64,000 bases of DNA from a virus, in IMG/VR virus record IMGVR_UViG_3300045747_000694, positions 42,165-106,164 of that record, one strand, 5' to 3'. Made by a program: the position numbers and the translations under genes. The notes beneath the pieces are model-generated. The model was not told the DNA's origin. It searched no databases and saw nothing but the letters and a program-made list of their open reading frames with translations. Position 1 is the first letter of the stretch. Each line of letters starts with the position of its first letter. Below are positions 11,777 to 12,142 of the stretch, in pieces.

Positions 11777-12142
11777 TGGAGGCGCCGGGAATCGAACCCG
11801 GGTCCGACGAAGCTTGCAACACGACACTACGAGTGTAGCGAGTGTCCCCTCGCTGGTCCTGCGGTACACCCCGCGGGTCTTAGCGCCCAGGTGAGGTGCC
11901 TACTCCTGGGTGAGCGGTTCTTGTATGACGCTGCATCCCCTACCAGAACGTCTCGAGGTGCAACGGCTGAGCTCTCGTGGTCTCAGCTCACAACAGCTGC
12001 GGCCTCTACGCCGCTGCCAGCTGCTGCGCGAACATGGGCTCGTTGGCACATGTGGTGGTCGGCTCTTGGTAACGGGGCCTGCTGACCAACCCCCGACTCG
12101 CATCGTGTTCTGGGCACTCGCCGTCGAAGCCAGTTCGCCCCC
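11777..12142 (-). ncRNA. ssrA: tmRNA (ssrA), complete, 366 nt
   Basis: Minus-strand 5' end GGGGGCGAACUGGCUUCGACGG. Tag ORF GCC AAC GAG CCC AUG UUC GCG CAG CAG CUG GCA GCG GCG UAG (ANEPMFAQQLAAA-stop). 3' tRNA-like domain GGGUUCGAUUCCCGGCGCCUCCA. Confidence 0.85.

Follow-up and report, generated by a model that had tools for sequence, protein, structure and literature searches.

A probable phage-encoded tmRNA of Anaeromyxobacteraceae-like ancestry, with a lengthened tag, in a family of large uncultured phages

Genes for transfer-messenger RNA (tmRNA, ssrA) are documented in phages and have hardly been studied functionally. They are known from cluster C mycobacteriophages and Bacillus phage G (PMC4131195) and, sometimes together with SmpB, from metagenomic 'huge phages' (Al-Shayeb et al. 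2020, PMC7162821); one survey found tmRNAs in 402 of 18,146 phage genomes (2.3%; PMC9004378). Here we analyse a tmRNA gene on the minus strand of a 64,000-nt stretch of viral DNA (positions 42,165 to 106,164 of IMG/VR record IMGVR_UViG_3300045747_000694), hereafter the window, which is a 64-kb part of a phage genome. Phage-borne tmRNAs being already known, what is specific to this one is its Anaeromyxobacteraceae ancestry, its conserved pairing with a gene for an SLT-domain lytic transglycosylase, and its membership in a family of lengthened tags. We regard it with good confidence as a functional tmRNA gene of a large (~170-210 kb) uncultured tailed phage, and not as a host ssrA flanked by a prophage.

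Like the phage tmRNAs listed in PMC4131195, the window gene is a complete one-piece ssrA in a large, lytic-type phage genome without a link to an integration site, and relatives of its phage also carry sets of tRNA genes. Unlike them, it points to another host phylum, bears an Anaeromyxobacteraceae signature, encodes a short tag of 13 residues and has no tRNA genes near it in the window. With the huge phages (PMC7162821) it shares a setting of uncultured genomes of ~200 kb that carry translation genes including a tmRNA, for which ribosome rescue during infection has been proposed; it differs in that the 64 kb hold no SmpB, that its family, at 172-209 kb, lies around the 200-kb threshold, and that the host lineage of the tmRNA could be traced. 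In the marine myophage Melnitz and the pelagimyophages (PMC9004378), as here, the phylogeny of the phage ssrA tracks a bacterial lineage and serves to reconstruct host history, and no integrase is present. While the Melnitz tmRNA is a circularly permuted two-piece molecule associated with a riboswitch, the window tmRNA is of the standard one-piece form, and Rfam finds no riboswitch in the window.

ARAGORN calls the tmRNA at 11776-12142 on the minus strand, with the tag ANEPMFAQQLAAA followed by a stop, as the sole tRNA-like gene of the window, where it finds no tRNA genes. The Rfam covariance model RF00023, which gives the single Rfam match within the window, aligns to 11774-12142 on the same strand over its entire length (model positions 1-374 of 374) and scores 105 bits, the gathering score being 47 (E = 5.6e-40). 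The 3′-terminal CCA is not encoded: the DNA reads ...CCTCCA and then CTT, and since position 11777 is the discriminator A, 366 nt is the length of the gene minus CCA. The 5′ and 3′ ends form an acceptor stem of 7 bp (GGGGGCG/CGCCUCC) that contains G3:U70, the identity pair for alanine; the T-arm, with a GTTCGAnTC loop, is canonical. The tag frame consists of 13 codons, opens on an alanine resume codon without an initiator, closes with an in-frame stop, and aligns with the ANEPMALAA frames of bacterial tmRNAs. In the region of the first pseudoknot (PK1), the first hairpin is conserved and covarying (alignment columns 48-55 with 64-70), the RNAalifold prediction covering this hairpin and not the pseudoknotted second stem. 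By its sequence, the locus is a complete standard one-piece tmRNA, and its alanylation, its binding to SmpB and EF-Tu and its activity in trans-translation are predicted. An earlier note, made from the letters of the window, had described a 366-nt minus-strand ssrA with a canonical 5′ end, a tRNA-like 3′ domain and a tag frame, and its coordinates, strand and tag prove to be exact.

The tmRNA is shared by a family of related phages. Neither the tmRNA nor window positions 1-25000 had a DNA match in an annotated phage collection; in IMG/VR, related contigs form a family of 177-209 kb, or 172-209 kb when contigs from ENA and JGI are included. The closest relative, viral contig IMGVR_UViG_3300045971_000895 (198,259 bp), matches the window at two loci, L001, which is ~90% identical to window 40-60 kb, and L089, which is 70-84% identical to window 5.4-19.2 kb. 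At L089 the gene order is that of the window (tail fibre, radical SAM, SLT, tmRNA, 231-residue gene, GGDEF), with amino acid identities of 86% for the SLT protein, 61% for the 231-residue protein and 76% for the GGDEF protein, and the tmRNA scores 100 bits in Rfam and encodes the tag ANEPMINMAAAAA.

Using the SLT protein as an anchor, we found three further members. In an ENA contig of 201,353 bp (L092) and a JGI contig of 172,459 bp (L095, the same as L096), the SLT gene follows the tmRNA directly and on the same strand, and the tags are ANEPMFAQQMAAA and ANEPMFAKQLAAA, respectively; in an ENA contig of 196,070 bp (L093, of which L094 is a JGI fragment), two small genes stand between the tmRNA and the SLT gene downstream of it, again on the same strand, and the tag is ANEPMFAQQMAAA. 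Over aligned positions, these tmRNAs are 70% (L092), 85% (L093) and 83% (L095) identical to the window copy. In L093 the tmRNA is better conserved than its surroundings, at 86% nucleotide identity compared with 67% and 80% for the flanking genes. The tmRNA-SLT module is thereby kept in at least five related phage genomes, the window's included. Using the radical SAM protein or the 231-residue protein as anchors, in look-ups that required exact 8-residue seeds and missed L089 itself, returned distant loci without a tmRNA or nothing, and a back-translated pattern of the exact tag had 0 matches in viral contigs.

More distant copies occur outside the module. A 209-kb viral contig (L022/L003) belongs to the same phage family, with many homologues of window proteins at 33-51% amino acid identity; its tmRNA, a more distant homologue, adjoins an acyl-carrier-protein gene and encodes ANQPMVNEFRAAA. 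A viral contig of 84 kb (L090) carries a distant tmRNA homologue near four tRNA genes, with the tag ANEPMVSLRAVA. A 5.8-kb fragment from an independent SRA assembly (L091) is 100% identical to window 6037-11801. The phage copies match RF00023 at full length and above threshold, with scores of 85-132 bits. ARAGORN misses the genuine tmRNAs of L015, L018, L022, L089 and L090, all five of which Rfam detects. We also considered whether ~90 extra nucleotides upstream of the L089 tmRNA are a 5′ remnant of an older tmRNA left by gene replacement, and rejected this, the local score being 32 compared with 30 +/- 5 for shuffled sequences.

The sequence of the window tmRNA places it in the tmRNA lineage of Anaeromyxobacteraceae-like Myxococcota. 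Its signature, which consists of the 5′ 20-mer and, after it, the PK1 motif GGTTGGTCAGCAGGCC, is common to the window and L022. A scan with this pattern, which was taken from the phage sequence itself and applied to one genome per bacterial species, matched 22 bacterial genomes: 14 of Anaeromyxobacter or Anaeromyxobacteraceae, with the isolates A. terrae SG22 and A. soli SG29 among them, 2 of Myxococcales, 5 that carry the label 'uncultured delta proteobacterium' and a single bin labelled Planctomycetaceae. Metagenomes added 41 further contigs with the signature. The host-type tmRNAs measure 343-355 nt, are 82-100% identical to one another, and encode ANEPMALAA in 47 of 47 cases. With the chromosomal ssrA of Anaeromyxobacter and Anaeromyxobacteraceae, such as those of the two isolates, the window copy has in common the one-piece form, an identical 5′ 20-mer, the PK1 motif, the tag start ANEPM, the lack of an encoded CCA, and the last 34 nt (11774-11807, CTT included). 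It differs from them in length (366 nt, or 369 with CTT) and in its tag of 13 residues ending LAAA where theirs has 9, and the region of PK2-PK4 is essentially unalignable between the two. In a neighbour-joining tree, the host-type tmRNAs form a clade with a bootstrap of 100, next to a sister clade of long-tag tmRNAs with a bootstrap of 95 and long branches. These sequences are most simply explained if an ancestor of the phages captured ssrA long ago from an Anaeromyxobacteraceae-like bacterium, the gene then descending vertically together with the SLT gene and diverging fast. Phage tRNA and tmRNA genes are usually read as pointers to the host, and on that reasoning we infer from a captured ssrA that Anaeromyxobacteraceae-like bacteria are the likely hosts; the traceable origin of the tmRNA thus offers a concrete host hypothesis for an uncultured phage family of ~170-210 kb.

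The phages also depart from this lineage in the tag. The earlier note had remarked that it deviates from the common AN(D/E)...ALAA pattern; for the ...ALAA ending this holds against the related bacterial tags, 47 of 47 of which are ANEPMALAA, and the window tag still ends in Ala-Ala. At 13 residues it is 4 longer than ANEPMALAA. Across the seven phage copies, tags have 12-13 residues, 3-4 more than the host's, end in AAA (AVA in L090) and keep the ANEPM start (ANQPM in L022). Among the SLT-linked phages the tag is nearly fixed as ANEPMFA[Q/K]Q[L/M]AAA, though the L092 RNA has diverged to 70% identity, which suggests that the tag is constrained, or else the helix in which its 3′ half and the stop codon lie. 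We take the phage tag, from its sequence, to be a derivative of the Anaeromyxobacter-type ANEPMALAA.

This invariant host tag beside several longer phage tags makes a ready comparison for asking whether viruses tune the ssrA degron. A bolder, if unlikely, idea is that the ~200-kb Myxococcota phages re-engineered the degron from ANEPMALAA to ANEPM-x5-AAA, marking rescued proteins differently from the host tmRNA; if true, such a virus-tuned degron would amount to viral rewiring of trans-translation, for example through altered recognition by an adaptor or protease or through competition for SmpB. As an explanation of the locus, a tmRNA rewired in this manner, whose longer tag would give rescued proteins another fate (a different speed of degradation, escape from an adaptor, a phage factor) or whose RNA would compete for SmpB, seems to us improbable. 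The consistent lengthening in seven of seven phage copies and the near-fixed tag of the SLT-linked subgroup speak for it, and interference has a precedent in phage DS6A, whose tmRNA, reduced to the tRNA-like domain (TLD), inhibits the endogenous tmRNA (PMC4131195, PMC11915505). Against it, the phage tags retain the Ala-Ala-COO- terminus, the key and dominant determinant for ClpXP (PMC7652416), the stop-codon helix may partly constrain the 3′ half of the tag, and no phage protease or adaptor was identified.

A further point against rewiring is that a long tag may be native to hosts. Two members of the long-tag clade, L046 and L062, with GC contents of 67% and 72%, both encode ANEPMINMSAAAA, a tag of nearly identical type. 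L046 belongs to an Anaeromyxobacteraceae bin (SMAG_U11622, DASPZP01) from which the signature pattern drew no other ssrA, and its genes are ordinary metabolic ones, for a hydrolase, a CMD/cupin protein and a RibD_C reductase. The one match on L062 is weak and glycosyltransferase-like, and no phage genes were seen on either contig. Since a similar tag occurs on these chromosomal-looking contigs, the 13-residue tag may, on this sequence comparison, be the native tag of an uncultured host lineage that the phage tag mirrors.

The other question is whether the tmRNA belongs to the phage or marks the site of its integration. The 3′ end of ssrA is a frequent integration site, used as an attachment site by temperate phages and genomic islands, and the 3′ 34 nt of the window gene, which match the Anaeromyxobacter-type end exactly, lie in the region that serves as the att core. 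The window might accordingly be a prophage integrated in the host ssrA, with the tmRNA as the host gene or as a reconstituted attL or attR copy at the junction, the more so as the element is seen only in part; we consider this very unlikely. Unlike ssrA attachment sites, the window gene is full length and comes without a duplicate or an integrase. No integrase, recombinase or SmpB domain was found among the 82 called open reading frames (ORFs), a Pfam census of the other 72 of which counted 23 families, and the 3′-terminal 23-mer of the tmRNA has no second copy in the window with up to 3 mismatches allowed. The immediate neighbours of the tmRNA are the SLT gene and the domain-less 231-residue ORF rather than an integrase gene, and the 5′ side consists of phage genes conserved in L089, not of host chromosomal genes. 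Phage genes extend for at least 11 kb on one side and ~50 kb on the other, with even GC content and a common terminator motif.

The relatives point the same way. Their tmRNAs lie in the interior of the contigs, at ~187 of 198 kb, ~146 of 209 kb, ~26 of 201 kb and ~118 of 172 kb. Identity of the window copy to host-type ssrA is just ~60%, and the two differ in tag; in the phage copies, the acceptor and T stems are not those of the host, and the 3′ ends have diverged and been compensated. Because an att core must stay identical to the host attB, yet the phage 3′ ends vary, a role of the 3′ end as attP is disfavoured. Relatives' contigs of similar size (172-209 kb) begin at different points, which fits circularly permuted assemblies. 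The two loci of the 198-kb contig, L089 and L001, have the same orientation relative to the window, and the path between them across the contig ends is 22.4 kb compared with a distance of 21.0 kb in the window, while the path that does not wrap is 175.8 kb; this suggests that the 198-kb relative is a circular or terminally redundant genome without host flanks, bridged by the window. All of these results agree with the reading of the tmRNA as element-encoded and not an attachment site, which is thus supported. The earlier note had leaned to that reading over a prophage attachment site, having seen phage-like genes on both sides and neither an integrase gene nor a repeat of the tmRNA 3′ end. These observations stand: the genes for tail fibre, radical SAM and SLT proteins lie to one side, those for GGDEF, AAA ATPase, ligase and class II ribonucleotide reductase to the other. 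Conserved synteny and compensated 3′-end changes now join the phage flanks and the lack of int and att in the window in favour of that preference.

The only 'integration' label in the window is a weak PHROG transposase match (phrog_10081, 1.3e-19) of a 417-residue ORF at 26239-27492 on the minus strand, which has no Pfam, NCBIfam or PDB match. This ORF lies near the point to which the ends of the 198-kb relative's contig would map, where mapped offsets differ by ~1.4 kb, and it may be a mobile insertion.

Element-encoded copies are also under selection as RNA. In an alignment of 12 sequences, phage and bacterial copies together, 32 of the 55 predicted pairs show compensatory double changes, and the seven phage copies by themselves show them at 38 of 79. 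G3:U70 is invariant in both sets (12/12 and 7/7). The acceptor stem, GGGGGCG/CGCCUCC in the window, is GGGCCUG/CAGGUCC in L089 and GGGGGUG/CACCUCC in L095, and pairing is complete in every copy. All acceptor and T-stem pairs are intact in seven of seven phage copies, changes in the T-stem being likewise compensated. Covariation across the phage copies and the invariant G3:U70 indicate, at the level of sequence, that the tmRNA is under structural selection in the phage genomes and functional there, rather than a passenger. That it is a non-functional relic of imprecise excision or recombination, now decaying, is accordingly a notion to which we give next to no credence: phages do carry ssrA fragments left by imprecise excision (PMC9004378), and no promoter was detected near the tmRNA, yet in all phage copies the covariance-model match is full length at 85-132 bits and the tag frame intact, compensatory substitutions are many, and the tmRNA is at least as conserved as the neighbouring genes.

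The proposed function follows established tmRNA biology, as covered by two reviews (PMC3968760, PMC8012679), and roles proposed for phage tmRNAs (PMC7162821, PMC9004378). The tmRNA would be transcribed together with the upstream gene and the SLT gene. Host RNase P would cut the 5′ end, just past the conserved hairpin, and after trimming of the 3′ end a host enzyme would add CCA, a step that the host's own ssrA would likewise need because it too lacks an encoded CCA. Host alanyl-tRNA synthetase would charge the tmRNA with alanine by way of G3:U70, and host SmpB and EF-Tu would bring it, in the course of infection, to ribosomes that have stalled on broken mRNAs, freeing them. Translation would resume at GCC and stop at TAG, appending (A)ANEPMFAQQLAAA, and the tagged fragments would go to degradation, most likely by ClpXP since the tag ends in Ala-Ala-COO-. 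The phage would gain additional capacity for ribosome rescue and for recycling amino acids while host mRNAs are degraded. The current understanding of trans-translation is unchanged by the finding.

Several points weigh against a functional, phage-encoded tmRNA from an Anaeromyxobacteraceae-like donor. No sigma-70-like promoter was found in 11000-13000, so that expression is a prediction. The window shows 64 kb of a genome estimated at roughly 150-200 kb, the remainder of which could hold an integrase or SmpB. Look-ups with the window proteins 22155-23159 and 28561-29277, meant to bridge the two loci of the 198-kb relative, found nothing with the exact 8-residue seeds they required, leaving its circularity to be argued from geometry. 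The role in infection would be the one generally proposed for phage tmRNAs. Host assignment builds on a pattern derived from the phage and on the labels of metagenome-assembled genomes, and the GC content of the phage (64%) is below that of the Anaeromyxobacter loci (67-74%). Per-column identity between the window and host-type ssrA is 58-63%, with a shuffled control at 48%; multiple alignments understate this identity and gap-lenient pairwise alignments overstate it, the shuffled control reaching 62% over aligned positions and 48% per column. Identity this low implies that the capture was ancient or that the donor is unsampled.

Table 1. Features of the tmRNA locus in the window.
Feature	Position	Strand	Basis or remark
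tmRNA (ssrA), one-piece	11777..12142	-	366 nt to discriminator A; ARAGORN, Rfam, sequence
Acceptor stem 5′ strand GGGGGCG, including G3 of G3:U70	12136..12142	-	Rfam, sequence
PK1 hairpin region with GGTTGGTCAGCAGGCC, signature common to Anaeromyxobacteraceae ssrA	12073..12095	-	Pattern scans, alignments
Tag frame, resume codon GCC (12047-12045) to stop TAG (12008-12006), encoding ANEPMFAQQLAAA	12006..12047	-	Positions 96-137 of the gene in ARAGORN
3′ part of the tRNA-like domain (T-arm and 3′ acceptor strand)	11777..11810	-	Alignments
10-bp hairpin CCCTGGGCTG...CAGCCCAGGG, between the stop of the upstream gene and the tmRNA, 5 nt from the tmRNA start	12148..12174	-	Sequence
231-residue gene, no known domain, upstream of the tmRNA	12190..12885	-	Gene calling, domain searches
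Small hairpin GTACC-N8-GGTAC, 3 nt past the CTT that trails the tmRNA 3′ end	11753..11770	-	Conserved in L089
SLT-domain lytic transglycosylase gene, directly downstream of the tmRNA	11126..11683	-	Pfam PF01464
Terminator-like hairpin and T-rich tail, end of the tmRNA-SLT unit	11063..11094	-	One of a family of motifs that recurs in the window

The tmRNA occupies a 506-nt gap flanked by two minus-strand genes (Table 1). GC content is even across the window, at 61-68% with an overall value of ~64%, and gene calling based on the GC content of third codon positions gives the 82 ORFs as tightly packed, long same-strand blocks. The low-coordinate side carries a virion-protein fragment, a tail fibre of 2026 residues, a radical SAM protein and the SLT transglycosylase, whose gene is preceded by a strong ribosome-binding site. 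On the high-coordinate side are a GGDEF protein, many domain-less ORFs, a methyltransferase, an AAA ATPase (phrog_8638, 2.5e-129), a ligase-like protein and a class II ribonucleotide reductase. Both flanks of the tmRNA retain similarity to the closest relative: the 5′ arm of the upstream hairpin and its adjoining sequence are kept (window 12183-12167 and L089 8623-8607, 17 nt, 94%), and the 3′ flank is 86% identical.

A terminator-like motif, on the minus strand a GC hairpin followed by CTTCTTaCCTCT, occurs at ~11051, 14919, 15814, 17104 and 21254, on both sides of the tmRNA. The motif probably serves the phage as an intrinsic terminator and may overlap a ribosome-binding or promoter element downstream. 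The earlier note had reported both this terminator and shared upstream motifs on the two sides; the terminator is borne out by its five sites, and the upstream motif is not, since the sequence upstream of the tmRNA occurs a single time in the window, without a repeat or a promoter. Since the search turned up no promoter and a terminator closes the unit downstream of the SLT gene, the arrangement of the sequence suggests that the tmRNA is probably co-transcribed with the 231-residue gene and the SLT gene.

The window's rich set of auxiliary genes is typical of very large phages. The tail fibre gene (1625-7705, plus strand) encodes collagen repeats and a C-terminal Peptidase_S74 intramolecular chaperone. 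It overlaps by 4 nt the gene of the radical SAM enzyme (7702-8826, plus strand), a pairing kept in L089 and in the identical fragment L091; the enzyme may modify the tail fibre post-translationally or be unrelated to it. A gene for a GGDEF diguanylate cyclase (14081-14926, plus strand; Pfam 1.8e-35, TIGR00254 3.5e-34) lies 2 kb away from the tmRNA, and another protein of the window has a response-regulator receiver domain; from their domains, the two hint that the phage manipulates host cyclic di-GMP signalling. Further ORFs with Pfam matches include GroES (Cpn10), YpsA/SLOG, DprA-like, hemerythrin, a fragment of a family A DNA polymerase, a PNKP-type phosphatase and a DUF2997/DUF1257 pair.

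An 881-residue protein (30687-33332, minus strand) is a homologue of the eukaryotic major vault protein (MVP), with Pfam matches to MVP_shoulder (2.5e-27) and Vault_3 (2e-09) and matches to the MVP chains of PDB entries 4V60 and 7PKZ (E = 4e-19, residues 516-807); its length is near the 861 residues of MVP. The homologue is kept in the 209-kb relative (51% amino acid identity over 877 residues) and in L092 (a gene of 875 residues with the same Pfam matches). We found no record of the exact product; preprints have described MVP homologues from viruses and bacteria (bioRxiv 10.1101/2023.11.10.566534, 10.1101/872010).

Near the tmRNA-SLT module, two relatives carry tRNA genes that ARAGORN calls 'tRNA-Pyl (cta)' (L092:10913-10986 and L095:8553-8630). 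The L092 tRNA scores 49 bits in Rfam and has a 9-nt anticodon loop containing CUA. These CUA tRNAs could be amber or frameshift suppressors. Amber recoding, considered on their account, was rejected for the window, where TAG ends 35 of 81 called genes and no counterpart tRNA is present.

Eight other viral loci (L015, L016, L018-L021, L023 and L024) hold unusually short tmRNAs of 280-310 nt that share the 5′ 20-mer GGGGGCGAACTGGYTTCGAC, often stand beside tRNA genes, and have tags including ANDNVEFDYALAA and (A/V)NDDVEFESYALAA; for the 280-nt copies of L015 and L018, ARAGORN gives no tag, yet their Rfam score is 85 bits. On a 3.2-kb metagenome contig (L077), a Ro60/TROVE (Rsr-like) gene at 175-1095 (vWA_Ro60, 2.5e-68) lies just upstream of a tmRNA of the long-tag clade at 1210-1583, with the tag ANEPMINMQLAAA, so that two components of RNA surveillance are adjacent there.

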